In this document: piece by piece, positions 9,994 to 36,693 of the stretch | Position numbering within the stretch: the stretch's first letter is position 1 | Layout: every line of letters starts with the position of its first letter | Assembly: GCF_000217995.1 (NCBI RefSeq) | Contig: NC_015676.1 | Coordinates: 1,345,708 to 1,409,707 of the forward strand | From: Methanosalsum zhilinae DSM 4017 | GTDB lineage: Archaea > Halobacteriota > Methanosarcinia > Methanosarcinales > Methanosarcinaceae | Reading direction: 5' to 3' | DNA: 64,000 nt | The notes under the pieces: model-generated | Told to the model about the DNA's origin: nothing | What the model saw: the letters and a program-made list of their open reading frames with translations, nothing else | Database searches by the model: none | Program-made: the position numbers and the translations under genes

Positions 9994-10000
9994 TTAACAC

Positions 10001-10007: not shown

Positions 10008-10045
10008 AAAATGAGAGAGACAAACCAAGTGGAGATGCCAAACAT

Positions 10046-10912: not shown

Positions 10913-10922
10913 GGCGAAACCA

Positions 10923-11210: not shown

Positions 11211-11251
11211 AATATACTGTGAAAATATAGAAATATCGAGGTGTAAAAAAT

Positions 11252-11650: not shown

Positions 11651-11732
11651 ACGCCTTATCAGGATAGAAAAAATCCTGATTTCTTTTTTTTACTTATGTG
11701 TCTTTCAGATAAGAATTATTTTGAGGTAATAC

Positions 11733-12152: not shown

Positions 12153-12531
12153 GCGAATGCAATCATTCTGACCGTATTTCTATTTAGTGATATGATATTT
12201 TTTACATCAGAATAAACAAAAACTACTTAAGGCATTAAATCTATTGCAATTATTGTGTGCTACAAAAAAACTTGTTTGTAACACTGGAGATTTATATTGA
12301 ATTTTATTTTTTTCAGGTTACAAAATTTCCAGCTTCCAAAAAACGGGTTGGGGTACAAATACCCCTCTTTCCTCCAATCCAACATATAATTTTCAGGAAA
12401 CCTTATAATGAATAATGGGAAATATACTACTATAAAACTGCGATAAAATAAAACAGTTATTTATTATTTACCTGTTACCTTCAAAATGTGATTTACATTT
12501 GAGGGCTACGACATTTAAATGGGGGAATTAA

Positions 12532-14256: not shown

Positions 14257-15111
14257 ATGACAACCGCTAAGGATTATTCTAACGATGTAGAAAATGAGTG
14301 GTGCCCGGGGTGTGGGAACTTTGGGATCCTTAAAGCTATCAAAAAGGCACTTTCAGATTTGGACAAAAAGCCTCACGAAGTGCTTATGTGCTCTGGCATC
14401 GGACAGGCAGGAAAGCTTCCCCACTATCTTAAATGTAATATATTCAATGGCTTGCACGGACGTGCAATTCCGGTAGCTACAGCGGCAAAAACTGCAAATC
14501 ATGATCTTACGGTTATTGCAGTTGGAGGAGATGGAGATATGTATGGTGAAGGAGGAAATCATTTCATACATAACATACGAAGAAACCCGGACATTACTTT
14601 GATAGCACATGACAATCAGATATATGGGCTCACAAAGGGTCAGGCATCTCCAACCAGTGATATCGGGATGAAGACAAAGCTGCAGCCGCATGGTGTCGTC
14701 AACACACCCTTCAATCCTCTTTCTGTGGCAATAGCCCTTGACTGCTCTTTTGTCAGCAGAGGATTTGCAGGAGATGTTGAGCATTTATCAAAGATCATTG
14801 GTCAGGCGATTGATCACAAAGGATTCTCTCTTGTGGATATACTTCAGCCATGTGTTACCTTCAACAGATTGAATACATTCAAATGGTATCGTGAAAGAGT
14901 ATACAAGCTGGACGAAACAGATCATGACCCATATAACCGAACCAAAGCATTCGAAAAAGCTCTTGAATGGGGAGAAAGGATTCCAACAGGTATATTTTAC
15001 AGAACAGATGATAAAGAAACATTCGAGGACATGAGAGGATTGGCATCAACACCCCTGGCGTACCTGGATGAAAATATTGACATAAGCACTTTGGTCAAAG
15101 AATTCATATAA
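14257..15111 (+). CDS. korB: 2-oxoacid:ferredoxin oxidoreductase, beta subunit (TPP-binding)
   Basis: The product has CPGCGNFG and GIGQAG motifs and a TPP-binding GGDGD-type region (AVGGDGDMYGEGGNH). Confidence 0.8.
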   Translation: MTTAKDYSNDVENEWCPGCGNFGILKAIKKALSDLDKKPHEVLMCSGIGQAGKLPHYLKCNIFNGLHGRAIPVATAAKTANHDLTVIAVGGDGDMYGEGGNHFIHNIRRNPDITLIAHDNQIYGLTKGQASPTSDIGMKTKLQPHGVVNTPFNPLSVAIALDCSFVSRGFAGDVEHLSKIIGQAIDHKGFSLVDILQPCVTFNRLNTFKWYRERVYKLDETDHDPYNRTKAFEKALEWGERIPTGIFYRTDDKETFEDMRGLASTPLAYLDENIDISTLVKEFI

Positions 15112-15151
15112 AATCTAAAATAAAGTCTGGTCATGAAATCAGGTATTTATT

Positions 15152-15754
15152 TCAGGTTTTTTTTGTTGCCCTTATAATAACAATCTCTTCAAAAAAATAT
15201 CTGGTACTTGCAACAATTTCAGGACACAGATCTTTATCCTTCATATTATTCATTATATGTTTAATATCTGCAAGAGAAGATGTTACCATCAAAATACTAG
15301 AATCATCTGACATATAGTATCCGGCGTTATCAAGAAAATCCTCTACTGTATCATTGCCACTGATTCCACCGTCAAATGCATAATTTAGCCACCCTTCTAT
15401 CTTTTCATCGTCTGTTGGAAGATATGGGGGGTTGAATATAATGAGATCAAATATAGGCAATCTTTTAATTCCTTTAAACAGATCAGTTCGGATTACATCA
15501 ATGCCGTTGCCCTTTGCACATCTAGCTGCATAAGGATTGATATCTGTTGCAATAATCATCTCAGGATTCAGATTTGCCCTGATCACTGCTGAAACTATAC
15601 CTGTACCGGTACCAATTTCAATTATTCTCATCCCATCATATGCATACTGCAATACCGCATCTGCCAGCAAAAAAGAATCTTCAGCCGGCTCGTATACATT
15701 ATCTGCAAGTTTTACTACTGATTTTTGGTATTCAATTTCAATCATTTTTAACAT
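15152..15754 (-). CDS. HemK/PrmC-family (Mtq2-like) protein N5-glutamine methyltransferase
   Basis: The product has a SAM-binding motif (EIGTGTGIVS) and the NPPY catalytic motif (IIFNPPYLPT). At 200 aa it matches archaeal Mtq2. Confidence 0.7.
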   Translation of the reverse strand: MLKMIEIEYQKSVVKLADNVYEPAEDSFLLADAVLQYAYDGMRIIEIGTGTGIVSAVIRANLNPEMIIATDINPYAARCAKGNGIDVIRTDLFKGIKRLPIFDLIIFNPPYLPTDDEKIEGWLNYAFDGGISGNDTVEDFLDNAGYYMSDDSSILMVTSSLADIKHIMNNMKDKDLCPEIVASTRYFFEEIVIIRATKKT

Positions 15755-15760
15755 TCTGCT

Positions 15761-16576
15761 TTATAGCTGTTTTATATCCTTAAGACCATTTGCTATATCA
15801 GCAAGCTCAAATGGTGACAGATTTTCCGGCCTCTTATCAATGATATCCTGCGGAAGCTGAATGATCATTTCTTTCACATCTTCTTTATTCAGGCCCAGCT
15901 TACTAGAATTATTCATTATAGAATTTTTCAGCTTTTTTCGCCTCTGTCCAAAAACCGCTGTAATGAATTTAAAGAAAAAGCTTTCATCCACCACTTTGTA
16001 GGGAAATGGCCTTGGGACCAGTTTCACAACTGCAGACATGACCTTTGGGGGAGGAGAAAATGCAGATGCAGGAATCTTCATTATAATCTCAGCATCTGCA
16101 TAGTATTGAGTAGCAACAGACAGTCTGCTATAGTCTTCTGAACCTGTACAGGCAACCATCCTCCTGGCAAACTCATACTGGTACATCAACACTCCCAGAT
16201 CAAAATCGTATCTTAAAAGTTTAAAGGTAACAGGAGAGGATATGGAATAAGGCAGATTTGCAACAACCTTATTGAAGGGAGGAAACTCAACTTCAAGAAC
16301 ATCTCCGGATATTATCTGAATCTCTTCATGATCTCCAAATCGATCATGTAATACATCTACCAGGTTTGGATCAAGTTCTATAGCTATTGTTTTTTTTGCC
16401 TTTGATGCTATTTTCTCAGTAAGATTCCCAACACCAGCTCCAATTTCAAGTACCACATCCTCGGGTCCGATCCTGGATTCTTCAATTATTCTCTCAAGTA
16501 TTCGGTTATCCACAAGAAAGTGCTGATCATGAGATCCTCCCTGTATCCCATACTTCTTTAAAAGCGATCTGACCAA
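15761..16576 (-). CDS. rsmA: 16S rRNA (adenine1518/1519-N6)-dimethyltransferase KsgA/Dim1
   Basis: The product has QHFLVD, EIGAGVGNLT and VANLPYSISSP motifs. Confidence 0.85.
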   Translation of the reverse strand: MVRSLLKKYGIQGGSHDQHFLVDNRILERIIEESRIGPEDVVLEIGAGVGNLTEKIASKAKKTIAIELDPNLVDVLHDRFGDHEEIQIISGDVLEVEFPPFNKVVANLPYSISSPVTFKLLRYDFDLGVLMYQYEFARRMVACTGSEDYSRLSVATQYYADAEIIMKIPASAFSPPPKVMSAVVKLVPRPFPYKVVDESFFFKFITAVFGQRRKKLKNSIMNNSSKLGLNKEDVKEMIIQLPQDIIDKRPENLSPFELADIANGLKDIKQL

Positions 16577-16597
16577 AATCTATTCTCACCTGTTAAA

Positions 16598-17191
16598 TTA
16601 GTCACCTTTGGGACGTTGGGGAGGAGTTGTGAATAAACGGTATTTTATATTTTTATCCTTTATCTCATCCTCAATCCTGTGTGAAATTGTCTTTTCAGGG
16701 GAATGTAGTCCACTTACCCTTTCCTGAAGATCTTTGAAACTCTTGAAGTTTCCTTTCTTTCTCTCATCAATTATAGCCCACATGAGTTTTTTGCCAATAC
16801 CTGGAAGGAGTTCCAGCATGTGCAGTCTGGTAGTGATCGAGTGTGCATCATTGAAAAATTTCACAAATTTATCTTCAGAGTATTTTACTATCTTTTCCAG
16901 AGCAAAAGGCAATTCAAGCTTAGCACCGTGTGTAAGATCTTCATACCGTATCCTGTGCTTAACATGATCTATAATTTCCCTTTCACCTTCACCAATATAT
17001 ATTCTGGACTGAATTTCTGGGATAACGCCTTCCTTGGGAACCATTTCCATCAGTACAAAATATTTTTCACCGACTGCCTGAATAAGAGGTTTTTTCTGAT
17101 ATGCAGGACGATTATCAGAAGGACTGCCATACGGCAGATAATCAAGTACCCATGCATATTCCTCTTTACCAGTAGTCTTTTTATTGATCAT
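16598..17191 (-). CDS. DUF655-family protein (conserved archaeal ksgA neighbour)
   Basis: The 197-aa protein has a helix-hairpin-helix-like C-terminal half. It sits in the conserved archaeal rpl21e-rpoF-DUF655-ksgA synteny. Confidence 0.55.
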   Translation of the reverse strand: MINKKTTGKEEYAWVLDYLPYGSPSDNRPAYQKKPLIQAVGEKYFVLMEMVPKEGVIPEIQSRIYIGEGEREIIDHVKHRIRYEDLTHGAKLELPFALEKIVKYSEDKFVKFFNDAHSITTRLHMLELLPGIGKKLMWAIIDERKKGNFKSFKDLQERVSGLHSPEKTISHRIEDEIKDKNIKYRLFTTPPQRPKGD

Positions 17192-17277
17192 AAATATATA
17201 CCCTCCAGTGGCCTGATTTTAATGATACGGTCATATTACAGGATCTCAAAAAGAAAATGAGATATAGAAATATAAAG

Positions 17278-18232: not shown

Positions 18233-19480
18233 TTATATTTTTACATCCACAACATCCAGTTCCGCAACTTCAGCCTGGACACCAAGAATCCCGCTAAGAC
18301 TTGGAACTGTTCTTCCATCATCACTGGAAATCAGTTCCTTGACATACAGTCCACCGGCGCAGTGTACACGAATAATGGCATAATCCTCATTGATTTCCTC
18401 AAGTTCCATTTCATGAACATGCCTTTCTCTAACAATGTCCGCCCTTCGATGCACAACACGTAGAGGTGTCTGCTGTTTTATATCTGATCCTGCGAGATGC
18501 TCAACTGCATATATAAGGTTCTTTTCTGAAACCGGCTCTTTGAATGTAACTTTAAGGTTATAAACTTTATCCGCCTTTGAAGACTTTAGTGATTCAATTA
18601 CTTCTTTGGAAGCAAATTTAAGTCCTTCTACTTCAATTTTACCGCCAGATTTCTCATTTATTTTATTTTCAAGCAACCTGAGATCCGTTTCTCTGAAGAC
18701 AGGATCAACTGCTTCCACAACAAAAGGTCTGCCATTGCCAAGCATCAGGGCATCTATATCCTCACGGCCTGCACCATGAAATTTTGTCTCTGCACATCTT
18801 GTGGCCTCTATGACATGCTCACGTATTAATTCATCTACTGATACTGGATATTGTTTCCCGGTAAATTCACAGGATTCACAACCCCTGCCTCTGCATTTTC
18901 TACAGGGCCATCTTGTCTGAGGAATACCTCTGATAAGTTTGCGATACCTTCCGTAAATATATAGTGACCTTACCTGCAGTTTGACATTGTTTTCTGCTAT
19001 ATCCAGCATAACGACAACATCAGGATATTCAAAATTCACCTCTTTGCCTGTTTTCTGTGATATGATTTTACCGATCTCTCTGTTAAGTTCTGATTTAAGT
19101 GGTTCTGCATATAATGTTCCTGATTCGGTCCAGAGTATCTCTTCGTTTTCACTCAAAAGACCACTGATAATCGTACCAACCAGAAAAGTTGAATATTCAT
19201 ATTTGGAAAGTTTTGACAGTGCCATTTCAGCCCAAGTATCCAGTTCTTTAAAAAGGCCATTGCATACCCAGCATGTATTTCCTTCAGTGCTACTCAAAAA
19301 AGAACTGTCCATTCCTTCTTTTGAAAGTCTGTCAGCTTCCATTGTAATAGATAATTTCAATGCCCTCCCACGTTCATCATTTGTCAGGCCCGTGGACAAT
19401 TTACCAAATTGCCTTCCAAGACAGTGATCGCAGATAGGACCTTCTGCGATTATTTTCTTAGAAATCTCAAGTATATTCAT
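18233..19480 (-). CDS. pus10: tRNA pseudouridine(54/55) synthase Pus10
   Basis: The 415-aa product has N-terminal zinc-binding CxxC pairs (CDHCLGRQF...CWVCNG). It carries a THUMP-like region and a C-terminal catalytic domain. It is adjacent to trmY, as in other archaea. Confidence 0.8.
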   Translation of the reverse strand: MNILEISKKIIAEGPICDHCLGRQFGKLSTGLTNDERGRALKLSITMEADRLSKEGMDSSFLSSTEGNTCWVCNGLFKELDTWAEMALSKLSKYEYSTFLVGTIISGLLSENEEILWTESGTLYAEPLKSELNREIGKIISQKTGKEVNFEYPDVVVMLDIAENNVKLQVRSLYIYGRYRKLIRGIPQTRWPCRKCRGRGCESCEFTGKQYPVSVDELIREHVIEATRCAETKFHGAGREDIDALMLGNGRPFVVEAVDPVFRETDLRLLENKINEKSGGKIEVEGLKFASKEVIESLKSSKADKVYNLKVTFKEPVSEKNLIYAVEHLAGSDIKQQTPLRVVHRRADIVRERHVHEMELEEINEDYAIIRVHCAGGLYVKELISSDDGRTVPSLSGILGVQAEVAELDVVDVKI

Positions 19481-19614
19481 TTTATCACTCAGTCATCCTG
19501 TATATTATTGATACCAGTTTATCAGAAAAGGGAAAATGGTCTCCACACACTTAAGCTTAGCCAATAGACCGGCATGAAGTCTGAACCATTACTTTAGCTG
19601 ATCAGTTAAAGGAA

Positions 19615-20298: not shown

Positions 20299-21429
20299 AT
20301 GGGCATAAAAAATCTTGAAGAATTTGCCAGGAAATATGGTCAGGACTATGAACTATTTTACGACTATTTAATTATGAATGGTTTGAGTCGTAACTCAATA
20401 CAATCAAAAATGTTAGCTTTTAAAATATTAAAATCAATTACAGCAGGAATTGATCTTTCAAATCTTACTGAAAAAGATATTTTAAAAATCAGAACAAATA
20501 TAGTTAAAAGATATCCTCAAGAACAAACACAGGCAATGCTTCAGATTGTACTCAGGCAGTGGTTGGACTGTTCAGAACAGAAAGACCTGATTGAACTTGT
20601 TAAAATTTCCAGGATAAAAAGTAATAAAAAGCTTCCCGAGGAAGTATTGACTCGGGATGAAGTTCAAGCTCTTCTAGATAACTGCAATCATCCAAGAAAC
20701 TCAGCTTTAATTGCATTGATGTATGATTCGGGTTGCAGGGTTGGCGAATTACATGATATGAGAATAAAAGACGTAATCTTTGATGATAATGGTGCAGTTG
20801 TTACTTTTCCAACCGGTAAAACAGGCTGGCGTAAAAATAGAGTGGTTTTTGCTGCTTCTTATCTAAGGGTATGGTTAGATCATCATGAACACAAAGCCAA
20901 TCCGGAAAATCCACTATGGTATACATTCAAACGAGACTATAAAGGGAAAAAGGAAATACAGCCTCTGAAAGCAAGTGCTGTTAGAAAAATGATCAAAGAA
21001 ACTGCTGAAAGAGCAGGCATTCAAAAGAGAGTACATCCTCACCTATTCAGACATACCAGAGCAACCGAACTTGCAAATCATTTAACTGAACAGCAACTGA
21101 AAAAACAGTTTGGGTGGACACAGGCTTCCAACATGGCTGCCCAGTATGTTCACCTAACAGACAAAGATGTGGATAATGCAATATTGAAAGCATCCGGGGT
21201 TGAAGTTATTGAAAAAGAAAATGAAAGAGAACTTAAGCCAGTAAGATGTGAGAGATGTAAAGATCTAAATCCTCCCGGCACCAGTTTTTGTAATAAATGT
21301 GGATACCCAATGGCTGAAGAAGCATCCATAGAACCAACTACAGTACTTGCAGAAGCCATGGAAAATCCTGAGTTTAGAAATGAAGTTACTAAAATGCTGG
21401 CTGATATGTTTGAAAAGAGTAAAAAATAG
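20299..21429 (+). CDS. Tyrosine recombinase / phage-type integrase with C-terminal zinc ribbon
   Basis: The catalytic region is HPHLFRHTRATELANH...QYVHLTD (R-H-R-Y). A C-terminal CERCKDL...CNKCGYP C4 ribbon follows. The gene marks the transition from the core region to the AT-rich accessory DNA. Confidence 0.8.
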   Translation: MGIKNLEEFARKYGQDYELFYDYLIMNGLSRNSIQSKMLAFKILKSITAGIDLSNLTEKDILKIRTNIVKRYPQEQTQAMLQIVLRQWLDCSEQKDLIELVKISRIKSNKKLPEEVLTRDEVQALLDNCNHPRNSALIALMYDSGCRVGELHDMRIKDVIFDDNGAVVTFPTGKTGWRKNRVVFAASYLRVWLDHHEHKANPENPLWYTFKRDYKGKKEIQPLKASAVRKMIKETAERAGIQKRVHPHLFRHTRATELANHLTEQQLKKQFGWTQASNMAAQYVHLTDKDVDNAILKASGVEVIEKENERELKPVRCERCKDLNPPGTSFCNKCGYPMAEEASIEPTTVLAEAMENPEFRNEVTKMLADMFEKSKK

Positions 21430-23041: not shown

Positions 23042-23535
23042 AATTATCTAAAAATATTATGGATTAACTTTCATAAAAAGTTTCTTAATATAGCTCTGTA
23101 GAATTTCTTATTAAAATTCACTTGAATCAATAGCAACAATGTGTTATCTCAAAGAAAACTGAAAGTCGATCTAATATAGACTCTCTATGTAGTTTATACT
23201 CAGTTTCGTTGAAACTTTGTTTCAACTCAAGTCTTAAAGAAGTATTACGAAGGTGAGCAAACAAATCTGGATCATCATTCATGTTGTGAAATCTAAAATT
23301 ATGATTCTGTGAAATAAATTATCCGAACAATAATTATTAAGGAGTTATATATTTCTGTATTACGCATTAACATCTTGCATTTGACCTCTTTTTACCTGAT
23401 TTCTAAATAAAATATATGAGATTTTACAGCAAGATAGTGACGCTGTCGACTAATATCAACTGAACATTTAAATCCGAGATATAGGTACATTTAAAATATT
23501 ATTAGTTATATAACTAGATTGTTAAATAAATAGCC

Positions 23536-26605: not shown

Positions 26606-28024
26606 TTATCGACTTTTATGGTCTGTGCATATTTGGCTCCACCAAACATGATAAGGAACTCCAGTATCTTTTTCATGTTTTGCTTTATAGTGTGCATCTA
26701 TTCCATCCCAACCATTCCCTTTAAATATATGATTACAAATTGGACACCTTCTTGGATGTGTGATGTTTTTACCCCAACATGGACAATTTGGATTGCAATT
26801 TTCATTCACTTCTTCTTTATAATTACTATTGTTAGCTGATACTAAATTACTTCTTTGAACTATGCTATCTTCAATGACTACATTCACATCACAATTACCA
26901 TTAACATCGCACATATCTAACAAATTAGTATGTTGTACAACAGAATCTTTGACATATACATTAACAATCTTATTTTTTGAGATTGATTCCAAAGTTTGCT
27001 TTAACTCTCTTCCAATTTCAGCAAGTAGACCAGTTAAAGAGTCAGCATTATTAGTCGCTGCAAATAATTCAATTCTATTATTTCCAGAGAAAATAGAAAT
27101 TTTGATAATAATATCGTTGTTGTTTACCTTAGTCTTACCGTAATACCATATCTCAGATCTTCTTTTATCTCTTGAACTTAATGTGCTCACATGCTTAATA
27201 TCATGTTTTTGGAGAACTTTATGACTCAGATGAGTAATATTGTTGATATCAAACCCATCACTTATCTCATAAATACGGTTATCTCTACTTGGAAGCTTTT
27301 CAATAAATTCTTTAAGTCTCCCAATATTGATGTCCTGATCAGTCTTCATGATAGGACAAATAACTCTTATCTCTTTTGGCTCCATCCATGTGGACTGCAT
27401 GTTCCCCATATAATTTTGATATAGAACAATGCATTTAATATCAGTAGCTTTAGAGCAAGTGAGAGGTTCAAATAGAATCGTTAATGTCTTCGATTTACCA
27501 CCAGGAATAGTATCCAAGATAAATTTACCATTTTTTTTAGAAATTTTTTCATTTTCAACTATATGCAATAAAGCTTCATCATAAATGAAGTCTAGAGAAA
27601 CGTCACTAATTACATATTGGCTTTCATTACTGACCGAAATCTTGAACCTAATGTAACCTTGATAGAATTCTGTTTCTCTTTTGATATTAATGGGAAAATT
27701 TGTATAAGTTTCTGTTTTATGAGTATTAATATTGAGGTTGTTTTTAAAGCTTTTATCTAAATTATTAAATTTAGATGATTTGGAACCTGTAGGAGACTCA
27801 AATGCAACCCATCCATCTCCAAGTGAAACTTTATGTTTCTCAGCACTATTCATGTTACCAAACCTGGTTGCTTTCTTTCCACCTATACTGGCAGCAGGTT
27901 TTTTATTTCCATATTCCCCATCCTTATAAACATATTTCACTCCTTGATGGCAACCCCGCTCTTTAGCTTCTTCCACGACACTTTTGGGTACCGTTTTCCC
28001 TAACTCATTCTTCATCAAATACAC
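26606..28024 (-). CDS. Paralogue 1 of an uncharacterised domain family with a C-terminal Cys/His-rich zinc-binding tail
   Basis: The central ~250 aa align with the N-terminal domains of the 33057 and 35044 proteins (TLTILFEPLTCSK...EPKEIRVICPIM, then VKDSVVQHTNL / IEDSIVQRSNL). The tail is CNPNCPCWGKN...CPICNH...H...H. Confidence 0.5.
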   Translation of the reverse strand: MYLMKNELGKTVPKSVVEEAKERGCHQGVKYVYKDGEYGNKKPAASIGGKKATRFGNMNSAEKHKVSLGDGWVAFESPTGSKSSKFNNLDKSFKNNLNINTHKTETYTNFPINIKRETEFYQGYIRFKISVSNESQYVISDVSLDFIYDEALLHIVENEKISKKNGKFILDTIPGGKSKTLTILFEPLTCSKATDIKCIVLYQNYMGNMQSTWMEPKEIRVICPIMKTDQDINIGRLKEFIEKLPSRDNRIYEISDGFDINNITHLSHKVLQKHDIKHVSTLSSRDKRRSEIWYYGKTKVNNNDIIIKISIFSGNNRIELFAATNNADSLTGLLAEIGRELKQTLESISKNKIVNVYVKDSVVQHTNLLDMCDVNGNCDVNVVIEDSIVQRSNLVSANNSNYKEEVNENCNPNCPCWGKNITHPRRCPICNHIFKGNGWDGIDAHYKAKHEKDTGVPYHVWWSQICTDHKSR

Positions 28025-28054: not shown

Positions 28055-29254
28055 CTAAATTTTAAATTTGTTAGTAATATACATAGAACTTCCAAAACCA
28101 AGTTCAATTATCCTATTTTCATTTAGTAGTCTATCAATCAGGTCTTTTGAAGATTTTAAATTCAGTCCAGTTTCCTTGGAAAGGTCATTCACAGTAAACT
28201 TTTCATTTTGGCCTAAAAATGTATTGATAATTTCATCTAAAGAATATATATTATCAATCTTGTTATGCCAGAAAGAAAAATAAGTACTGCAGTTCACATT
28301 TTGATTGAATACAATAACATCGTGGTCAAGTTCATATAACAATAGAATTAAGCGAGGATGCATATATTCTCTAGCCCAAATCGTAATATCTTTATTCCAG
28401 CTAGAATTGATAAGACATAATGTTAAATATTGATTCTTGGGAACCGAACTAGAAATTGATTGTACGTATTTAATTATTTGAGTTAGATCATTTATAGGGT
28501 ACCATACAGTATTCAACTTAAGTTTTATATTCAAAATCCCATCTTTTATCTTTCCAGTAATACTTTCTGAGGATACGTCAACTATCCATTTGTTTGAACC
28601 AACATAATCACCATTGGGTGTCATCTCTGGCTGATGATCTGAGTATTTACATTCAAGGCAATTAATATAAGTATTTAATTTAGATAACGTTTGAGGGGTA
28701 AATTTTTCTTCAATATTTTTGTGGTCCATATTTGTGTCAGTAGTAGTAGTAGTAGAGAAATTATTAGTAAAAGTACTATTGTCAATCACAGAACAATTAA
28801 TATTATGATCTTCATTACTAAGGTTTAAATTGGCTTTGCAATTAAAATTATCAACAACTATCTGCTCAATCTTAATTCGATTTTTTATAGTTTTTTCAAA
28901 ATCAAATAGGTCCTGCTCTATTGAAAATGCATCAATATCCCTGGTAAGCATCTCCATAGTTTTAGCAAGTCTTGACGAAACATCTACAAGTTCGTGTTCT
29001 CTCTCATAAAACTGGTCAAGATCACCATCATCTGATCCAAATTTGTATGTATTAGCAGAATCCATATCTAATATTAGCTGAGAGATAAGAGCCCTGATAT
29101 CCCTTAGTTTGCAGCTGGTTTCTATATCCTTATTATGATACGTTCTCTGGATCAGCCGTTCTACAGTTTTATGTGCTCCTTTTAGTGAATTAAACGCAAT
29201 CTGAGTATTATTTTTTTGAATTTGTAGAAGCTCGCTAGGAACATTTTTTTTCAT
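28055..29254 (-). CDS. Hypothetical protein with a probable C-terminal winged-helix
   Basis: This 399-aa ORF lies in the same operon as the AAA ATPase. It contains a Thr run encoded by (AGT)n and a C-terminal segment LSKETGLNLKSSKDLIDRLLNENRIIELG. Confidence 0.4.
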   Translation of the reverse strand: MKKNVPSELLQIQKNNTQIAFNSLKGAHKTVERLIQRTYHNKDIETSCKLRDIRALISQLILDMDSANTYKFGSDDGDLDQFYEREHELVDVSSRLAKTMEMLTRDIDAFSIEQDLFDFEKTIKNRIKIEQIVVDNFNCKANLNLSNEDHNINCSVIDNSTFTNNFSTTTTTDTNMDHKNIEEKFTPQTLSKLNTYINCLECKYSDHQPEMTPNGDYVGSNKWIVDVSSESITGKIKDGILNIKLKLNTVWYPINDLTQIIKYVQSISSSVPKNQYLTLCLINSSWNKDITIWAREYMHPRLILLLYELDHDVIVFNQNVNCSTYFSFWHNKIDNIYSLDEIINTFLGQNEKFTVNDLSKETGLNLKSSKDLIDRLLNENRIIELGFGSSMYITNKFKI

Positions 29255-29294: not shown

Positions 29295-30476
29295 TTAAGC
29301 TACACGTTCAAGTATGTCTTTAAAAATGCTTTCTTCGCCGCTATTTTTTATTGACCTTTGAGCTCCAATATACCAACTTTTTATTGAGGGACTTCTACGC
29401 AGAATGACTGTAGTAAAATCTCTGAGCTCAATATTGCGTATAAGTCCACCTTTTAATGCTTCATTTAGTGGTATATCCGCTGCTTCCTTACAAATTGATG
29501 AAATATCAGCACCAGAATATCCCTCAGTGTTTGCTGCTAGCTCATCCAGGCATAAATGTGGGTCGATCGGTCTTGACTCAAGATATATATTAAAAATAGC
29601 TAATCTTGCATCATGGTCGGGTTCAGGTATGAAAAGAAGTTTACTAAACCTACCAGGTCTTCTTAGCGCGGGATCAATATTCCACGGTTCATTTGTAGCT
29701 GCAAGGACAAGAATATCACTGTCAATTTGCTCGACACCGTCCATTTGTGCTAGCAACTCGTTGACCATTCTTTTAGAATAGTCTTTACTATCACTTCTTT
29801 TCCCAGCAATAGAATCAATCTCGTCAAAGAAAATTATAGCCTTTTTCGATTTCCTGGCAGTCTCAAATATCTGTTTAATATTTTTTTCAGATGATCCTAC
29901 CCATTTACTAACTATATTGCTGGTCTTTACATTAATGAACTCAGCATCACATTCTTTAGCAGCTGCTTTTGCCATAAGGGTCTTGCCACAACCAGGGGGT
30001 CCATATAGAAGTATACCTTCTCCTGCTTTTTGGCCATAGTGCTGGTATAGTTCTTTATGTGTAAATGGATATATCATAGCTTTACGAATATCTTCTTTTA
30101 CATCATTTAATCCACCAATGTCATCAAAACCTATTTTTGGTATTTCTTTTAAAACAAAATCGCTTTTTGATATAGACTCTTCATCTTGTTGATCGTTGAA
30201 ATTATGATTTTCAGTCTCAACCTTAGTTGAATTGGGTGAATTGCTCTTAAGTGACTGTGCTTTTGAAAATAGGTGTTGTGCAATGTCACGCTGAGTGTTA
30301 CGTTCGGTTCTATCAGTATTTATGCTGGATGCTTCATTGTACAGTTTAGAAGACTTAAGGTACAGTTCTCTAGCTTTTACAAACTGTCCCTTATCTTCAA
30401 AATCTTTTGCAGCTTTTGAATAGCCCCGCGCTTGAGCAGCTAATTTTATAGCAGATGTCAATTGAGTACCCCACAT
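29295..30476 (-). CDS. MIT-domain AAA+ ATPase (Vps4/CdvC-like, meiotic-clade AAA)
   Basis: The N-terminal ~75 aa form a three-helix MIT-like module (AIKLAAQARGYSKAAKDFEDKGQFVKARELYLKSSKLY...). The AAA core carries Walker A GPPGCGKT, Walker B IIFFDEID, sensor ATNEPWNIDPALRRPGRF and a C-terminal helix. Confidence 0.75.
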   Translation of the reverse strand: MWGTQLTSAIKLAAQARGYSKAAKDFEDKGQFVKARELYLKSSKLYNEASSINTDRTERNTQRDIAQHLFSKAQSLKSNSPNSTKVETENHNFNDQQDEESISKSDFVLKEIPKIGFDDIGGLNDVKEDIRKAMIYPFTHKELYQHYGQKAGEGILLYGPPGCGKTLMAKAAAKECDAEFINVKTSNIVSKWVGSSEKNIKQIFETARKSKKAIIFFDEIDSIAGKRSDSKDYSKRMVNELLAQMDGVEQIDSDILVLAATNEPWNIDPALRRPGRFSKLLFIPEPDHDARLAIFNIYLESRPIDPHLCLDELAANTEGYSGADISSICKEAADIPLNEALKGGLIRNIELRDFTTVILRRSPSIKSWYIGAQRSIKNSGEESIFKDILERVA

Positions 30477-30518: not shown

Positions 30519-31091
30519 TTACTCATTTTTTTCAATCTCAGAATTGATCTTTTTTGCTAGTTCATCCTGCTCAGAAGTTTCGCTACTAAGCTCTGCCAAA
30601 AGTTCAGACCTTAAAGAATCCTGCATGTCATTGAGTTCTTCACTACCTCCCATAGCTGCATCCATTGTAGTTGTCATCATTGTACTTGCAGTATTAACTT
30701 TATCCATCGACATACGGATGTTAGTAACAGCGCTTTCAAGCTTATCTGTATCAAATCCAAGTTGTTTTTGCCAATGACCTAGATCTTCTCCGATAGATAC
30801 CACTTCTTTAAGGCCCATTTGCATTTCTATAACATCTTTCATAGACTGAGCCATTTCAACCATGCTGCTTATGGTATTAACTTGTCCTTCCACCAAAGAA
30901 TATCTCCTTGACGCAACCCTGTACTCTCGGTCATTACCGCTAGCTAAAGCTTCTTTTGCTTCTTCACGCGCTTTTTTTTGTTTGGATTTAAGTTCCTTTT
31001 CTCTTGTGGTAAGTCTTTGCTCAGAAACTGCTAATTTTGTTTTAAGTTCATCAGGAGACACTTCTTTTTTGAAAGGGTTCTTAATATTCAT
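30519..31091 (-). CDS. ESCRT-III/Snf7-like (PspA/Vipp1/ESCRT-III superfamily) coiled-coil protein
   Basis: The 190-aa product has a basic N-terminus (KNPFKK...KELKSKQKKAREEAK) and a long helical hairpin. Its C-terminus is acidic (SEELNDMQDSLRSELLAELSSETSEQDELAKKINSEIEKNE) and resembles an MIM-like tail. It lies immediately upstream of the MIT-AAA ATPase. Confidence 0.5.
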   Translation of the reverse strand: MNIKNPFKKEVSPDELKTKLAVSEQRLTTREKELKSKQKKAREEAKEALASGNDREYRVASRRYSLVEGQVNTISSMVEMAQSMKDVIEMQMGLKEVVSIGEDLGHWQKQLGFDTDKLESAVTNIRMSMDKVNTASTMMTTTMDAAMGGSEELNDMQDSLRSELLAELSSETSEQDELAKKINSEIEKNE

Positions 31092-31246
31092 TACATCTCA
31101 TCCTCCATTTTGTTCTGTTTTGCATATCTTATGCAAATTTTTAGAGCCTCTGAACGGTTGATAGCTATTCCCATTTCCACTAATTTATCAAGATAATCCT
31201 TACTATCTTCTGAGACTCTTGCACTAACTGGATATGATCTACCCAT
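31091..31246 (-). CDS. Ribbon-helix-helix (CopG/Arc-like) small DNA-binding protein
   Basis: A beta-strand (RSYPVSARVSEDSKDYLDKL) is followed by helices (GIAINRSEALKICIRYAK). The likely start is the internal Met, which would make the ORF-track start at 31294 over-extended. The stop overlaps the start of the ESCRT-III-like gene. Confidence 0.45.
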   Translation of the reverse strand: MGRSYPVSARVSEDSKDYLDKLVEMGIAINRSEALKICIRYAKQNKMEDEM

Positions 31247-31342
31247 ATTTCTCACATTTAAATTTTTGTACCTACTGTATACAATGGAAAACATTATATA
31301 TAATACTTACTAAATAATTATATCAAGTATATTCATTTTAAG

Positions 31343-32644
31343 GTGGTATTGTTAATAATGACATTCAAATGGCAACGTGACAAGGATGAAGTCGCGAGAC
31401 TTATTCCTAAAAAAATAGTTAAAGGGATTTTCAATAAACAGATTATACTGTCACCAAATGAAAGAGCTGTTCTTGTCAAAAATGGAGTAGTACAGGAGAC
31501 AATCACTGATGGTAAGCTAAGTATTGGTGGCTTGCTCAACTTTAGGTCAATTGGAAAAGATATTGATATTGTGTTATTAGACATTAGTCCAAAAGATATC
31601 TCATGGGAAAAAGAAGAGTTATGGACTGCAGATTCTCATAAGGTCAACTGTAAAGGTATACTAAGGCTCAGGATAATAGATCCTACAAAAACTTTCAAGA
31701 TGCTTTATGGTCATATGGTTGCTGAAAGTGATAATGGAAAATCATTATCAACTAAAGATATCTATACTGTCTTCGAAAGTGAATTGCTTTCACATGTACT
31801 TGAACCTGAAGTGAGAGCCTTAAATGCCCAGGAACTTTATGGTAATAAAGACATACAAGTAAAGATGGAGAGCGAGCTTGAAGTAAAACTTAAATCAACT
31901 CTATCTCTATGGGGTCTTGAGCTTCTCAAATATAATCTACAATGGGACCTTGGTACCTATGAAGATATCATGCATGCAAACCAAGAGTTTCAAGTAAAAG
32001 AAGAAATTGATGAACTTGAGACTCTTGCTGTCGAGGGTGAAGCTGAAAGAACTGGAAGGCTGAATGTAGCTCGGATTCGAGCTGACCAAGCACTTTCTAG
32101 TGAAAAAAACAATTTTGTACGTGATCAGAAATATAAAGATGTTAGATCTCAAGTAGGTATTGAGAAAATGCAGTTCGAAGCTGATATACAACAAGCAAGA
32201 GAAGCTATCGCATTAAAAGAGGAGCTAAAACTTGCAAAAACTCGAGGTAAAAGGACAGAACTTGAAGTCGATCAAGATATGAGAGACCGTGAGCATGGTA
32301 GAGATCTTGAGTATTTGAGTAAACTCGCTGAAGCCGGTGGTCCCGAAGTAGCTAAGACTGTTAGTGAGGGTAGAGAGTTAAGTAGAATGACAGCAGAACA
32401 AATCGAAGCAATTGCTAAAGTAAAACAGAGTGAAGTCTTAGCTAGAGAGAATAAAATCGAGTTTATGAAAGAGGTAGAAGACCGTGAACGCATGAATTCA
32501 TACAGGCGCCAGGAACTCGATGCTGCAATGATGTCTGCTGCAAATAGCAATGATAAGTATATAATTTCTAAAAAATGCTATGAATGTGGTACAAGAATAT
32601 CTTCAGATGCAAGATTTTGTAGCCAATGTGGGAGAACACTCTAA
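31343..32644 (+). CDS. SPFH/band-7 (flotillin/stomatin-like) protein with coiled-coil and a C-terminal zinc ribbon
   Basis: The SPFH core reads ERAVLVKNGVVQ...LRLRIIDPTKTFKML...TKDIYTVFESELLSHVLEPEVRALNAQELYGNKDIQ...LWGLELLKYNL. A long charged coiled coil follows, then CYECGTRISSDARFCSQCG. An alternative start lies at 31358. Confidence 0.6.
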   Translation: MVLLIMTFKWQRDKDEVARLIPKKIVKGIFNKQIILSPNERAVLVKNGVVQETITDGKLSIGGLLNFRSIGKDIDIVLLDISPKDISWEKEELWTADSHKVNCKGILRLRIIDPTKTFKMLYGHMVAESDNGKSLSTKDIYTVFESELLSHVLEPEVRALNAQELYGNKDIQVKMESELEVKLKSTLSLWGLELLKYNLQWDLGTYEDIMHANQEFQVKEEIDELETLAVEGEAERTGRLNVARIRADQALSSEKNNFVRDQKYKDVRSQVGIEKMQFEADIQQAREAIALKEELKLAKTRGKRTELEVDQDMRDREHGRDLEYLSKLAEAGGPEVAKTVSEGRELSRMTAEQIEAIAKVKQSEVLARENKIEFMKEVEDRERMNSYRRQELDAAMMSAANSNDKYIISKKCYECGTRISSDARFCSQCGRTL

Positions 32645-33056
32645 AAATATTTATATAATTAAATTGTTTTATTTTTTAACTCAAAGAAATTAAGATTTTG
32701 ATTCATTTATCAGTATCATTTATTATTCCTTATATATAAAAATAAATTAAATTGTAGTGAAGGCTTAAACTAGATTGATATGATTAAAGATGCAAATGAA
32801 AATAACCCTTTAAGCAACAGGACATAATAAGTTATAAAGTGATGACGAATTATCATTTTAATAAATACATAGATTGTGTCACCATTTTGCTGTAAACTCT
32901 TCTGTCTTTCACTTTACTTAACTAGTCAATATTTATCTGTACGTATCTATACTTAGAGCTTGGATTACTGATAGAGTAGTTCTTTTTTAAATTTAAGGAA
33001 ATCGAACTATTCCAAAATATACTTATAGTCTGAAACTATCTACTTTTAGAAACAAA

Positions 33057-34943
33057 ATGACAGATATTGACATTAAAAGAGGTTATGAGATTTTAACTGA
33101 TAATAGTTTAAGGTTAGGTATTCGTATAACTAACAACACTAATTCAGTTATTAATAAAGTGCAAGTACTACTTGACTATAACGACTCTTTATTTCAGCTC
33201 ATAGGTGAACGATTTCAGAGTGTTGATAGTATTCCCCCAACTGTTCCTAGAACACTCGAATTTATTCTGAAACCAATTGGATGTGTTCATAAAGAATATA
33301 TTGAAGCCACCATTACATATCGTGATCAAGAATGGAAAAAGCATATCTTGACGATGGAACCTAAAGAAATTCATTGTGTATGCCCATTCTTACGAGCAAA
33401 ACCAATGTCAACTTCTAAATTCCTAGAAATATTTTCTACAGGAACTTCGGTTGATAAAGGATTGAACATTGATGGGATTGGTATAGATAAGATTAGATCT
33501 ATGTTCATGGAAACATGTAATAATCGGTTATACCAGGTTGCAGAGCGCAATATAGAAGACGGAAAAATCTTATATTTATCTAGCGAGTCCATTGGTGAGA
33601 AAGCAACTTATCTGCTTACTGTTTTGATTAAAGAAAATTCGGGTATTACTCAGGTAATGTTAAGGGCAGTTTCAGATAAAGAGCATGGATTGCATGGATT
33701 TGTTAATGAGATTATCACAGAAATACAACATTTAATATCTACACAAAATTCTGCAAAAGAGATTGGCCATATTAAGAACGAACAGGTAATAAACATTATA
33801 GATTCTGTTGTTCAAAGGAGTAATTTTGAAACCCGCGACAATAAAAAGAATATTAATGTCGAAGAGAGCATAATTCAAAGCAGTTCTTTTACAGGCCTTC
33901 CAAGTAAATCCAATTTTTCTGGAATGGAAGATATTAGTCTACATATGGATAAACCAGTAAAAAATGAAGATAATATAAATGCACTTTCTTCCCAAAAAGA
34001 ATATGCAAATTACTCTTCAAAAAGAGGTTTGTCTTTAAAAGATTCAGGCAAATCAATAATTCCTTATATAGGTGCAATTGGACTTATATTGGTATCTTCA
34101 ATTGTTTTTATTTCTTTCATGGGTTTTGAGCCTGTATCTGATGTAGATGTGAGTTCAAATTTAATGGCTCAAGAAAAAGATATGTCAGCTACAATTGGAT
34201 ATGTTACATGGGATGGAGAAGTTGCAAGTACAAATGTAATGAAGCAGGTACTTGAACAGGCAGGATATGATGTAGAGATCATAGCTGTGGATGCAGGACC
34301 TCTTTATCAGGGACTTGCACAGGGCCAGTTTGACTTTACCACCTCAGCATGGCTTCCACATACCCACGGTCACTACATGGACCAGTATGGTGACAACTTT
34401 GTAGAAGTATCCACAAATCTTGAAGGCTGTAAGATCGGTCTTGTGGTACCTCAATATGTAACTATTGATTCAATCGAAGAGATGAACGATGTAGTCGATG
34501 AGTTTGATGGAAGGATTGTGGGTATTGAACCAGGTGCCGGTATTATGACCGCAACCGAGAATGCAATTGATGTATATGATCTTGAATATGAACTTGTGGC
34601 AAGCAGCAGTGCAGGCATGGCTGCAGAACTCAGGACCGCAGTAGCCAATGATGAATGGGTTGTTGTTACCGGCTGGAGCCCTCACTGGAAATTTGACCGC
34701 TGGGAACTGAAATACCTTGAGGACCCAGAACTGGTCTATGGTGAGGAAGAATATGTTGCAACCCTTGCACGTGCAGGACTCCAGGAAGATAAACCAGAAC
34801 TCTATGACATAATATCAAGATTCTACTGGACCCAGGATGATATCCAGTCTGTTATGATGGATATTGAAGAGGGAATGGCTCCTGAGGATGCTGCTGCAAA
34901 GTGGGTGCGAGAAAATTCTCATAAAGTTAATAGATGGATATGA
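33057..34943 (+). CDS. Paralogue 2: N-terminal uncharacterised domain, single TM, and C-terminal OpuAC-like glycine-betaine-type solute-binding domain
   Basis: The N-terminus (MTDIDIKRGYEIL...HCVCPFL...IIDSVVQRSNF...VEESIIQSSSF) is shared with the 35044 and 26606 proteins. The TM helix is IPYIGAIGLILVSSIVFISFMGF. The C-terminal ~280 aa resemble ABC glycine betaine/proline SBPs (GYVTWDGEVASTNVMKQVLEQAGYDVEI...WLPHTHG...GIEPGAGIM). Confidence 0.6.
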   Translation: MTDIDIKRGYEILTDNSLRLGIRITNNTNSVINKVQVLLDYNDSLFQLIGERFQSVDSIPPTVPRTLEFILKPIGCVHKEYIEATITYRDQEWKKHILTMEPKEIHCVCPFLRAKPMSTSKFLEIFSTGTSVDKGLNIDGIGIDKIRSMFMETCNNRLYQVAERNIEDGKILYLSSESIGEKATYLLTVLIKENSGITQVMLRAVSDKEHGLHGFVNEIITEIQHLISTQNSAKEIGHIKNEQVINIIDSVVQRSNFETRDNKKNINVEESIIQSSSFTGLPSKSNFSGMEDISLHMDKPVKNEDNINALSSQKEYANYSSKRGLSLKDSGKSIIPYIGAIGLILVSSIVFISFMGFEPVSDVDVSSNLMAQEKDMSATIGYVTWDGEVASTNVMKQVLEQAGYDVEIIAVDAGPLYQGLAQGQFDFTTSAWLPHTHGHYMDQYGDNFVEVSTNLEGCKIGLVVPQYVTIDSIEEMNDVVDEFDGRIVGIEPGAGIMTATENAIDVYDLEYELVASSSAGMAAELRTAVANDEWVVVTGWSPHWKFDRWELKYLEDPELVYGEEEYVATLARAGLQEDKPELYDIISRFYWTQDDIQSVMMDIEEGMAPEDAAAKWVRENSHKVNRWI

Positions 34944-35043: not shown

Positions 35044-36693
35044 TTGGAGAAATCCATGGCGGATATTGATATTAAAAGAGGGTATGAGATACTGCCAGAC
35101 AACAGTATCAAATTTGGAATTAGAGTCACTAACAATACGGTAACTACTATTTCTGAAGTTGAAACTATTTTGGATTACTCGGAAGAACTTTTTAAATTAG
35201 AGGGGGTCAAAATTAAACGGTTAGGTCAGCTTCCACCAAAATCTGAACGTACTGCTATATTTATCTTAAAACCATTAACATGCATTCATAATGAAAAAAT
35301 CACGGCAACCGTTCTTTACAAAGATTCTAAGTGGGAACTGAACGTTGAAAAGATGAAAAGTAAATGTGTTGATTGCGTTTGTCCTTTTCTAAAAGAGAAA
35401 CAATTAAGCCGAAAACATTTCATTGAAAAAAACTCACATGGAAAATCACTAAAACAATATCTTTATTTTAAAGGCATTTCTACCTCTCACCTGATCTCAC
35501 TATTAAACGATGTTTGTGCTAATCGCTTATATAAAATTGAAGAATTTGAATTCAATGATGGGATAATGGTATATTATTCTGCCGAGTCAATCAGTGATAA
35601 TGTAGATTATCTATTAACAGTTTTTGTAAAAAATATAGATGATCTTTGCGTAGTATACTTTAAAGCAGCATCAAATAAAGAGCATGGTTTATCAGGCTTC
35701 TTGAGCGAGATCTCATCAGAACTTAATCAAGTTGTTAGTACTGTAAAAAGTGCACAGGAAATTAGCTTTGTAAAAAAAGAAAATATAATCAACATTAAAG
35801 ATTCTGTAATTCAACGAACAAATTTCAATAATAATCAGGATGTTTCAAATCTATGCATAGAAGATAGTGTTATACAAAACACTCATTTTTCTTCAACTAA
35901 ACCTTCTAATAGCATAGACAATGAATATACAAGTCCCTTCGAATCCATTGAATCAGAAAACTCTGGCACAAATAGTGAATATTTTAGCGAAAAAAAGAGA
36001 GCAAATAATTTTGACAATAAAAAAACTTTTTTTTCAATATTCTTTCTACTTGTTATAATTTTGTCCATGGTACCTTTATTCGAAACCACATACGAAGTAA
36101 AAAAACCGATCTACACAACTGAAACATATATCAGTACTGAGCCACAAGAAAAAATCGAAACTTACATAGAACAAGAACCTTATGAAGTTTTAGAACAAGA
36201 TTCGCGTACTATAGTTGATGAAAAAAGAACAGTTAGACCTGGTTACTATCTTTATTTTAAAAGATATATAGATAGTGATAGCAAAGTTAAAAATACTATC
36301 ACTGGCAAAATTGTTGAAACTGCAGGCTATGATATAAATTTTTTTGTTTTCGATGAAACTAATTTTAAAAATTGGGCAAGTGGCTCTTCTTCTTCAAGGT
36401 ACGTTAGTGCTACAAGAGTTAGTTCACATAATTTCCAATTTACTCCAAAGCAATCTGGGAACTATTATTTTGTCTTAGATAATCGATATTCATGGTTCAC
36501 TAATAAAGTTCCTGAGATTACGGTTGAATGGAAATATGAGCACATTTTAACAAAATATCGAGATGTTGAAAGAGAAAGAACAATAATAGAATATGTAGAT
36601 GTTGAGAAAGAGAGGGAAGTCACAAAATATGTTGCTGTTCAAGATAAGAAAAAGGCAAATTTAATTGAACTCTTAGTCGCTCATGATTGGTAA
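35044..36693 (+). CDS. Paralogue 3: N-terminal uncharacterised domain, single TM, and C-terminal beta-rich ectodomain
   Basis: The N-terminus reads MADIDIKRGYEILPDNSIKFGIRVTNNT...DCVCPFL...IKDSVIQRTNF...IEDSVIQNTHF. The TM helix is FFSIFFLLVIILSMVPLF, and the C-terminal region is Tyr/Thr-rich. The start is probably at 35056. Confidence 0.5.
   Translation: MEKSMADIDIKRGYEILPDNSIKFGIRVTNNTVTTISEVETILDYSEELFKLEGVKIKRLGQLPPKSERTAIFILKPLTCIHNEKITATVLYKDSKWELNVEKMKSKCVDCVCPFLKEKQLSRKHFIEKNSHGKSLKQYLYFKGISTSHLISLLNDVCANRLYKIEEFEFNDGIMVYYSAESISDNVDYLLTVFVKNIDDLCVVYFKAASNKEHGLSGFLSEISSELNQVVSTVKSAQEISFVKKENIINIKDSVIQRTNFNNNQDVSNLCIEDSVIQNTHFSSTKPSNSIDNEYTSPFESIESENSGTNSEYFSEKKRANNFDNKKTFFSIFFLLVIILSMVPLFETTYEVKKPIYTTETYISTEPQEKIETYIEQEPYEVLEQDSRTIVDEKRTVRPGYYLYFKRYIDSDSKVKNTITGKIVETAGYDINFFVFDETNFKNWASGSSSSRYVSATRVSSHNFQFTPKQSGNYYFVLDNRYSWFTNKVPEITVEWKYEHILTKYRDVERERTIIEYVDVEKEREVTKYVAVQDKKKANLIELLVAHDW

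Follow-up and report, generated by a model that had tools for sequence, protein, structure and literature searches.

In a stretch of 64,000 nucleotides of Methanosalsum zhilinae DSM 4017 (NC_015676.1, positions 1,345,708 to 1,409,707; hereafter the window), the gene Mzhil_1285, which encodes a protein with an SPFH domain, lies divergent from an operon that encodes a small ribbon-helix-helix (RHH) protein, an ESCRT-III-like protein and a Vps4-like ATPase. We found that in Methanosarcinaceae and Methanoperedenaceae this SPFH gene stands head to head with the RHH/ESCRT-III operon across a near-invariant promoter block. We favor, with moderate confidence, the view that the SPFH protein belongs to the Meth_adaptin ESCRT system and would serve there as a scaffold for ESCRT-III and be co-expressed with it through the shared control region. 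The association of SPFH with ESCRT-III and its interpretation are already known for this exact locus, the point having been in the literature since 2024, when it was made with the M. zhilinae locus itself (Makarova et al. 2024, mBio 15:e00335-24, PMC10936438). Added here are a 36-bp cis-element and a 51-amino-acid (aa) candidate regulator, which together make the regulation of the system directly testable, as well as a corrected gene model for its ProX component. More generally, a link between SPFH and ESCRT-III in methanogens that divide with FtsZ bears on the pre-eukaryotic organization of ancient membrane-remodeling machinery.

The SPFH protein (WP_013898576.1, arCOG15283) is cytoplasmic and anchor-less; its SPFH domain is followed by a long coiled coil and, at the C-terminus, by a zinc ribbon. 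The SPFH (Band-7) domain covers about aa 1-200 (31358..31957, + strand), as judged from Pfam (Band_7, PF01145, 29.2 bits for a cut-off of 23.6, E 1.1e-6, aa 35-200), from an AlphaFold2 (AF2) model and from Foldseek, and a Band-7 domain is precomputed for most homologues of WP_013898576.1. The coiled coil, which extends over about aa 201-396 (31958..32545, + strand), was delineated from the AF2 helices and from the alignment with a flotillin chain. The ribbon is formed by two CxxC motifs at aa 407-410 and 421-424 (32567..32641, + strand); it is recognized by Pfam (Zn_Ribbon_1, PF13240, 25.8 bits for a cut-off of 25, aa 411-432 of the 433-aa longest open reading frame [ORF]), and, in an alignment of 22 homologues, C410, C421 and C424 are invariant and C407 is nearly so. 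The AF2 model, built with 22 homologues, has a mean predicted local distance difference test score (pLDDT) of 73 and shows alpha/beta elements at aa 2-197 (block pLDDT mostly 80-92), followed by helices at 201-326, 330-342 and 346-396 and then by the small C-terminal ribbon. When this model was compared with the PDB by Foldseek, flotillin 9bq2 was the best match (E 1.8e-9; 388 columns on the 402-aa chain 9bq2_A), followed among the best matches by 9oh9, 9cz2, 8rrh and 7vhq. The probability was also 1.00 for stomatin, HflK/C, prohibitin, erlin and the major vault protein, with E-values from 1.8e-9 to 1e-6 for flotillin, stomatin, HflK/C and prohibitin. The assignment to the SPFH superfamily made in the original prediction is thus borne out by a profile match above its cut-off, and the structural resemblance to flotillin, stomatin, HflK/C, prohibitin and erlin backs this match.

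The relationship to flotillin lies at the level of fold and architecture only. No flotillin-specific domain appeared among the Pfam matches at E<=0.1, no NCBIfam model matched the protein, and PDB searches by sequence alone, with the protein or with its profile, returned nothing significant, so that only fold comparison worked. Like flotillin, stomatin, HflK/C and prohibitin, the M. zhilinae protein has an SPFH alpha/beta domain followed by a long helix, the part that builds the cage wall and cap in those proteins. Unlike them, it has no N-terminal transmembrane (TM) helix or hydrophobic hairpin, it carries a C-terminal ribbon, and neither NfeD nor a protease is present as a partner. Indeed, no TM or hydrophobic segment was detected in the protein, the maximum over 19 residues on the Kyte-Doolittle scale being 1.02 with no window above 1.6; two TM-bearing neighbors score 2.46 and 2.58 on the same scale. 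The family is 44-58% identical across Methanosarcinaceae and Methanoperedenaceae, a conservation far beyond chance, and the SPFH profile, used as a query at E<=1e-10, retrieved 217 cluster representatives, among which are full-length proteins with ribbons.

We place the gene at 31358..32644 on the + strand (428 aa plus stop), that is, at 1377065..1378351 on NC_015676.1, genome coordinates being the window position + 1345707. The longest ORF starts from a GTG at 31343 and runs to 32644 (433 aa), and the database match WP_013898576.1 (428 aa) is 100% identical to it from the ATG at 31358. A Shine-Dalgarno-like AAGGTGG, read from the sequence (31341..31347, + strand), lies 10 nt 5' of this ATG, and orthologous loci carry comparable GGTG sites before the SPFH start. 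Together, the exact 428-aa match and the Shine-Dalgarno-like site make ATG 31358 most likely the true start. At the other end of the gene, an oligo-T tract, TTTTATTTTTT (32667..32677, + strand), begins 23 nt past the stop codon and is likely an archaeal terminator; a scan for sigma-70 promoters and intrinsic terminators gave no terminators, its models not being applicable to an archaeon.

On the - strand, the genes that lead away from SPFH encode, in this order, the RHH protein, the ESCRT-III-like protein, an AAA ATPase and proteins of 399 and 472 aa. The RHH gene (CopG/Arc/MetJ-type; 31091..31246) was identified from its Pfam match (RHH_1, PF01402, 22.8 bits, cut-off 20.5) and from its homologues, and newer RefSeq releases call it a CopG-family protein. 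The homologues set the start at ATG 31246 and the length at 51 aa and give no support to the 67-aa version defined by the longest ORF. The stop codon of the gene overlaps the ESCRT-III start by 1 nt (TAATG), an arrangement that indicates translational coupling of the two genes. In an alignment, the RHH proteins show an N-terminal strand motif followed by two helical segments, and the strand, SYPVSARVSED, is nearly invariant. The ESCRT-III-like gene (30519..31091; 190 aa, WP_013898574.1, arCOG00454) was assigned from the Snf7 profile, from its fold and from Table S2 of PMC10936438. The AF2 model of its product consists of four long helices (pLDDT 72.8), and its top Foldseek matches in the PDB are CdvB, Asgard ESCRT-IIIB, CdvB2, CHMP1B/IST1, Snf7 and Vipp1, members of the ESCRT-III superfamily dominating the list; PDB sequence searches with the protein and with its profile gave nothing significant. 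The next gene (29295..30476; 393 aa, WP_013898573.1) encodes a Vps4/CdvC-like AAA ATPase with an N-terminal MIT-like region, according to Pfam (AAA domain, 155 bits), NCBIfam (the CdvC model spans aa 8-369 at 239 bits, the cut-off of the model being 650 bits) and Table S2. The RHH, ESCRT-III and Vps4 neighbors are therefore present as they had been described, on the strength of profile matches and of an ESCRT-III-type fold.

We mapped the proteins of the cassette by tblastn onto orthologous loci from species-representative genomes and assemblies, which sampled Methanolobus, Methanococcoides, further Methanosarcinaceae, metagenome-assembled genomes (MAGs) of Methanosarcinales, and Methanoperedenaceae. 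In every genome locus with upstream sequence, RHH/ESCRT-III adjoined SPFH and was divergent from it, and the SPFH gene was always paired with an ESCRT-III gene. Across the mapped loci, identities ranged from 69 to 82% for RHH, from 63 to 80% for ESCRT-III and from 44 to 56% for SPFH. The RHH gene was present in every related locus (69-86% identity), and its 22 cluster representatives (73-100% identity) all came from cassette-bearing taxa. Vps4 was adjacent in the loci of Methanosarcinaceae and several kilobases away in one locus (L011). The invariant core is therefore RHH/ESCRT-III facing SPFH, and Vps4 is not always adjacent, which makes the pairing of ESCRT-III with SPFH more constant than that of ESCRT-III with Vps4. 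More distant ESCRT-III/Vps4 pairs (40-55% identity), reached with ESCRT-III as the starting point, also retain a nearby SPFH-type gene, in other gene orders: SPFH is divergent with one gene in between in L054, and a 432-aa SPFH/zinc-ribbon gene lies on the same strand, three genes downstream, in L056 and L057. Since SPFH is kept near ESCRT-III in these rearranged lineages, the functional link is independent of the divergent layout.

Of note, in the two metagenome loci L056 (7810-12347) and L057 (426-4846), a 50-aa cysteine-rich protein with a CPEC motif replaces RHH, and the order on one strand is CPEC protein, ESCRT-III, Vps4, two small genes and the 432-aa SPFH/zinc-ribbon gene. Upstream of these genes are ThiF (E1-like) and E2-CBASS-like genes.

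The two transcription units of M. zhilinae are separated by a divergent intergenic control region of 111 bp (31247..31357), delimited by start codons that were set by homologues; it is because the homologues place the RHH start at ATG 31246 that the start-to-start gap amounts to 111 bp. The original prediction was right about the divergent layout and about a shared control region, since a near-invariant promoter/palindrome block sits between the two genes, but its gap of about 50 bp reflects the 48 bp that separate the longest ORFs (31294 to 31343). The conserved block, TGTATACAATGGAAAACAWTATATATAATACTTAYC, is located at 31276-31311, and the rest of the intergenic region diverges among loci. 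It opens with an 8-bp palindrome, TGTATACA (31276..31283), a candidate operator for RHH, with a TGTAC half-site upstream at 31267. The palindrome is followed by a transcription factor B recognition element (BRE)-like GGAAAAC, a symmetric TATA box (ATTATATATAAT) at 31295-31303 and an ATACTTA flank, which together occupy 31284..31309 on the + strand and were defined from an alignment of 15 loci. These loci belong to two families and their SPFH proteins are 44-56% identical, and 23 columns of the block are invariant among them. TGTATACA itself is nearly invariant in the 15-sequence alignment and occurs once in the 64-kb window; it was found once per locus, always in the region between the two divergent genes, in 15 of the 18 related genome loci, and a second copy exists elsewhere in two Methanococcoides loci. 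A TGTAY half-site is often present about 10 bp upstream of the palindrome.

A 34-mer of the block is unique in the window, with 0 occurrences expected by chance, and an exact 27-nt pattern retrieved 17 contigs from 241 million metagenome records, with RHH/ESCRT-III adjacent in every one. The BRE-to-TATA direction of the motif points away from RHH/ESCRT-III in 17/17 contigs; 14 of these extend far enough to show both flanks, each with SPFH on the other side of the motif. Co-occurrence in other genomes or in viruses had been proposed as a check on the original prediction; the divergent pairing was recovered in all genome loci with upstream sequence and in the 14 metagenome loci with both flanks, whereas no relatives were found among the 2.9 million viral contigs scanned, and a viral origin was dropped on this ground. 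A separate observation concerns a 21-nt near-identical repeat, AT[C/A]TCAAGTATATTCATTTTA, found at 19464-19484 and 31320-31340 and probably due to chance; the second copy is in the predicted 5' leader of SPFH, and the first is at the start of a 415-aa ORF (18233-19480, - strand).

Archaeal TATA boxes are nearly symmetric, and it is the BRE that fixes the direction of transcription. The conserved A-rich flanks on both sides of the TATA box fit a bidirectional use of this element. For leftward transcription, the palindrome would fall between the TATA box and the start site, and a site located between the two is a typical position for an archaeal repressor. We propose that the RHH protein is most likely the factor that binds the TGTATACA palindrome. 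In a related species, Methanolobus psychrophilus, the distance between BRE/TATA elements and mapped starts is about 19-22 nt and leaders have a median length of 55 nt (PMC5378194), and on the basis of these lengths both genes could use one TATA box.

It is also possible, albeit less probable in our opinion, that the block is simply the basal promoter of SPFH, made of a BRE, a TATA box and an upstream element. RHH/ESCRT-III would then have its own promoter, with RHH binding at another site or playing no part in the regulation of these genes. The textbook archaeal TATA box, with an A-rich BRE-like element oriented toward SPFH, speaks for this explanation, and the long intergenic regions of L004 and L012 do contain extra TATA-like sequences nearer RHH. 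A basal promoter, however, would not normally keep 27-36 bp unchanged base for base between families that share about 45% protein identity, and the 17 nt upstream of the TATA box, which include the perfect 8-bp palindrome, are nearly invariant. Furthermore, no other TATA-like sequence was seen between the block and the RHH start in the Methanolobus loci, and the strand with which the RHH protein would read DNA is conserved in parallel with the DNA block.

The published description of the system agrees with ours where the two overlap. PMC10936438 takes the M. zhilinae locus as its model case of the "Meth_adaptin" ESCRT system, which it illustrates with WP_013898571.1 and WP_013898578.1, and its Table S2 lists the neighborhood as adaptin-like arCOG15284, coiled-coil/winged helix-turn-helix (wHTH), Vps4, ESCRT-III, WP_013898576.1, ProX and adaptin-like/GOLD. 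WP_013898576.1 is labeled there "SPTH [sic] family protein, ESCRT system component" under arCOG15283, with SPFH assigned to residues 1-212 (Tables S1-S3); arCOG15283 of Meth_adaptin and the protein studied here are the same, without any difference in identity. The text of that paper notes the coiled coil, the zinc ribbon and a parallel with YdjI/PspA, and suggests an SPFH assembly that forms a lid. In our analysis as well, the Vps4-like AAA ATPase gene adjoins ESCRT-III and the arCOG15283 SPFH protein is part of the locus, as in Meth_adaptin. Since both the locus and the reading are those of PMC10936438, the interpretation given in the original prediction, a membrane-remodeling toolkit made of SPFH, ESCRT-III and Vps4, is a correct rediscovery, and it is supported by the present results. 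Four elements of our analysis were not found in the paper: the 51-aa RHH gene, absent from the M. zhilinae rows of Table S2; the promoter/palindrome block, found neither in the main text nor in the locus rows of Table S2; the ProX fusion ORF; and the non-adjacency of Vps4 in Methanoperedens-type loci. A literature search for follow-up work on the Meth_adaptin system found none.

The closest analogue that has been studied experimentally is YdjI of Bacillus subtilis, whose gene is part of the pspA-ydjGHI operon (Scholz et al. 2021, PMC8581546). YdjI is an SPFH protein with no hydrophobic anchor and with a zinc-finger motif near its C-terminus; it interacts with PspA, is required for the formation of PspA foci at the membrane and depends on two membrane proteins (PMC8581546). 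Associations between PspA and band-7 proteins have been documented more broadly in bacteria (PMC11237479). YdjI thus resembles the M. zhilinae SPFH protein in being anchor-less, in ending with a zinc finger and in adjoining a gene of the ESCRT-III superfamily, pspA, and because it too has no anchor, the absence of an anchor does not exclude membership in the SPFH superfamily. It differs in that it is bacterial, that its partner is PspA and not a Snf7/CdvB-type protein, and that no Vps4 is involved; moreover, its genes are co-directional in a sigma-W operon, unlike the divergent M. zhilinae layout with RHH. Beyond the SPFH domain, the two proteins are likened here on the basis of the published description of YdjI, which was not among the 12 sequences inspected from the distant profile matches.

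Our working hypothesis draws on this analogue and on solved SPFH cages. As in other SPFH proteins, the coiled coil would mediate oligomerization, and the resulting ring or cup would sit at the cytoplasmic side of the membrane, where the protein may recruit and nucleate, or else confine, the polymerization of ESCRT-III, as YdjI does with PspA. Being anchor-less, it would be tethered either peripherally or by the single-pass adaptin/TM/ProX and adaptin/TM/GOLD proteins described below, and its zinc ribbons, clustered at the apex of the coiled-coil cap, could provide a multivalent docking site for other proteins of the cassette. Remodeling or disassembly of the ESCRT-III polymer would then fall to Vps4. 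At the level of transcription, the symmetric TATA box with its conserved A-rich flanks would drive both directions and in this way couple the expression of the scaffold to that of the polymer. With the palindrome placed on the RHH/ESCRT-III side of the TATA box, RHH bound to TGTATACA would autoregulate its own operon and would also influence the SPFH promoter. We tentatively extend this scheme to the possibility that the module is an autoregulated, inducible switch for membrane stress and repair, an archaeal counterpart of PspA/YdjI, in which the release of RHH would free both scaffold and polymer and to which individual lineages would have added Vps4 and the adaptin-like cargo proteins.

Several points weigh against the proposal of an SPFH scaffold for ESCRT-III and temper our confidence in it. 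The confidence of the AF2 model is low in a part of the coiled coil (aa 299-344, pLDDT < 50). The ESCRT-III-like protein's Pfam Snf7 match (20.3 bits, E 4.8e-4) is under the cut-off of 27.3, and E-values for its ESCRT-III fold matches are no better than 0.016; weak values of this kind are usual for helical hairpins. The MIT match of the AAA ATPase is likewise weak (17.2 bits, under the Pfam cut-off). The distance from the TATA box varies from 44 to 86 nt to the SPFH start and from about 49 to 122 nt to the RHH start, and as a consequence the spacing is no guide to whether the TATA box serves one gene, the other, or both; the conserved block could also be just a strong basal promoter without an operator. 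In the Methanoperedens loci L015 and L016, no Vps4 was found within about 7 kb, from which it follows that a fixed SPFH/ESCRT-III/Vps4 machine is not universal. L015, from a Candidatus Methanoperedens sp., encodes a 774-aa adaptin-like protein (14885-17209, + strand) with an MIT match of 29.1 bits (PF04212, cut-off 30), and in this lineage the module that binds ESCRT-III may have been relocated to another protein. Finally, oligomerization, membrane association, the contact of SPFH with ESCRT-III and the binding of RHH to the palindrome are steps that we infer; no experiments on any member of the system were found, the only literature that names it being the comparative-genomics paper cited above.

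The components could, in principle, be arranged in the opposite sense, with SPFH acting as a brake that cages or sequesters membrane patches or ESCRT-III and with RHH setting the ratio of the two reciprocally, by repressing its own ESCRT-III operon while leaving the SPFH promoter on or activating it. The position of the palindrome, downstream of the TATA box for leftward transcription and upstream of the BRE for rightward transcription, makes such opposite effects possible, and the cages of HflK/C and prohibitin, which are among the fold matches of the SPFH protein, restrict their client proteases. We nevertheless judge a brake unlikely, given that YdjI does not oppose PspA but is needed for PspA focus formation (PMC8581546), and given that distant lineages place SPFH in the same orientation as ESCRT-III/Vps4, in what looks like a single operon, which suggests that the proteins are co-expressed.

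There is little to recommend the notion that the cassette is a mobile or defense island in which SPFH serves anti-virus or element-related membrane functions, and we regard it as very improbable. The cassette does lie in a low-GC stretch (roughly 21-54 kb of the window, 28-35% versus about 40% outside) that starts just past a XerC/D-type integrase (20299-21429) and also holds an NYN-domain gene, two large tetratricopeptide repeat (TPR) proteins and a 2004-aa YprA-like helicase, and the AAA ATPase matches the IetA models of PADLOC. However, the cassette is part of a stable chromosomal synteny, being located beside the S6e, IF-2, NDK and ribosomal-protein genes in Methanolobus and in the MAG locus L004, and the viral contigs mentioned above contain no relatives. 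PADLOC, moreover, gave no match for SPFH, RHH, ESCRT-III or the adaptin-like proteins, and the IetA match amounts to a generic similarity between classical AAA proteins, for which reason we dropped the interpretation as a defense system. As for SPFH being an ordinary stomatin/HflC-type housekeeping gene next to ESCRT by coincidence, an idea that owes something to homologues named "regulator of protease activity HflC" in databases, it is hardly credible for a protein that lacks both a TM anchor and an NfeD partner and near whose gene no protease is encoded, and coincidental adjacency is effectively refuted by the co-occurrence data, adjacency being kept in every locus examined, in two families and in rearranged distant lineages.

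Two observations relate to the surroundings of the cassette. The S6e/IF-2/NDK cluster, which abuts the cassette in Methanolobus, sits at about 3200-6000 in the M. zhilinae window. Direct repeats, sought as marks of an integrated element, were limited to short matches in two copies, the significance of which is doubtful. A 22-nt direct repeat, AAATYCACTTGAATCAATAGCA, is present with one mismatch at 23114-23135 and 51919-51940, 28.8 kb apart, and brackets most of the low-GC stretch, as a result of chance or perhaps as an old pair of attachment sites.

The remaining genes of the cassette lie at both ends of this core. Downstream of Vps4 on the - strand are a gene for a 399-aa protein with a coiled coil and a C-terminal wHTH (28055..29254, WP_013898572.1, annotated from Table S2 of PMC10936438), which is kept in related loci at 26-33% identity, and a gene for an adaptin-appendage-like protein with a zinc ribbon (26606..28015, WP_013898571.1, arCOG15284), identified from Table S2 and the text of the same paper. 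Downstream of SPFH on the + strand, an uninterrupted single ORF (33057..34943) encodes a 628-aa fusion of an adaptin-like N-domain, a TM helix and a ProX (OpuAC) domain. RefSeq and Table S2 of PMC10936438 give ProX as the C-terminal 275 aa alone (34119-34943), and the "ProX" gene is, from its sequence context, the C-terminal part of this longer ORF. Over its first 286 aa, the ORF shares 44% identity (E 2e-84) with the GOLD protein's adaptin-like N-region, a hydrophobic segment starts at about aa 332, and OpuAC matches aa 379-619 with 237.6 bits. The GOLD protein itself (WP_013898578.1, arCOG15284; 35056..36693, + strand) comprises an adaptin-like N-domain, a TM helix, with a hydrophobic segment from about aa 325, and a GOLD-like domain, whose EMP24_GP25L match (25.3 bits) is just under the cut-off of 25.9.

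The N-terminal region is common to three proteins of the cassette, WP_013898571.1 included, and the assignment as adaptin appendages rests on the HHpred results in Table S3 of PMC10936438. M. zhilinae is thus predicted to have three adaptin-like proteins, two of them single-pass with a domain on the outside. Because an adaptin-like N-region and a TM helix precede OpuAC, the ProX solute-binding domain is probably exposed on the cell exterior, carried by an adaptin-like/TM stalk, an arrangement that parallels the GOLD protein.

Zinc ribbons also end other proteins of the cassette. The C-terminal ribbon that the original prediction regarded as unusual for flotillins is real, yet it is not unique to the M. 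zhilinae protein, as it has counterparts in YdjI and in a protein from a Caulobacterales MAG. The latter, a 613-aa ORF (L021, 7962-9803), presents the same order of an anchor-less SPFH domain, a long charged coiled coil and a CxxC...CxxC ribbon, but its SPFH domain is only 24-25% identical to that of M. zhilinae and its gene context is different, neither ESCRT-III nor Vps4 having been seen near it in L021. Zinc ribbons recur in the neighbors in this locus (7962-12595), among them a Ser/Thr kinase: after the 613-aa ORF come a protein of 393 aa, whose N-terminus carries cysteine-rich motifs, and then one of 533 aa, in which a zinc ribbon comes first and a Ser/Thr-kinase-like region after it.

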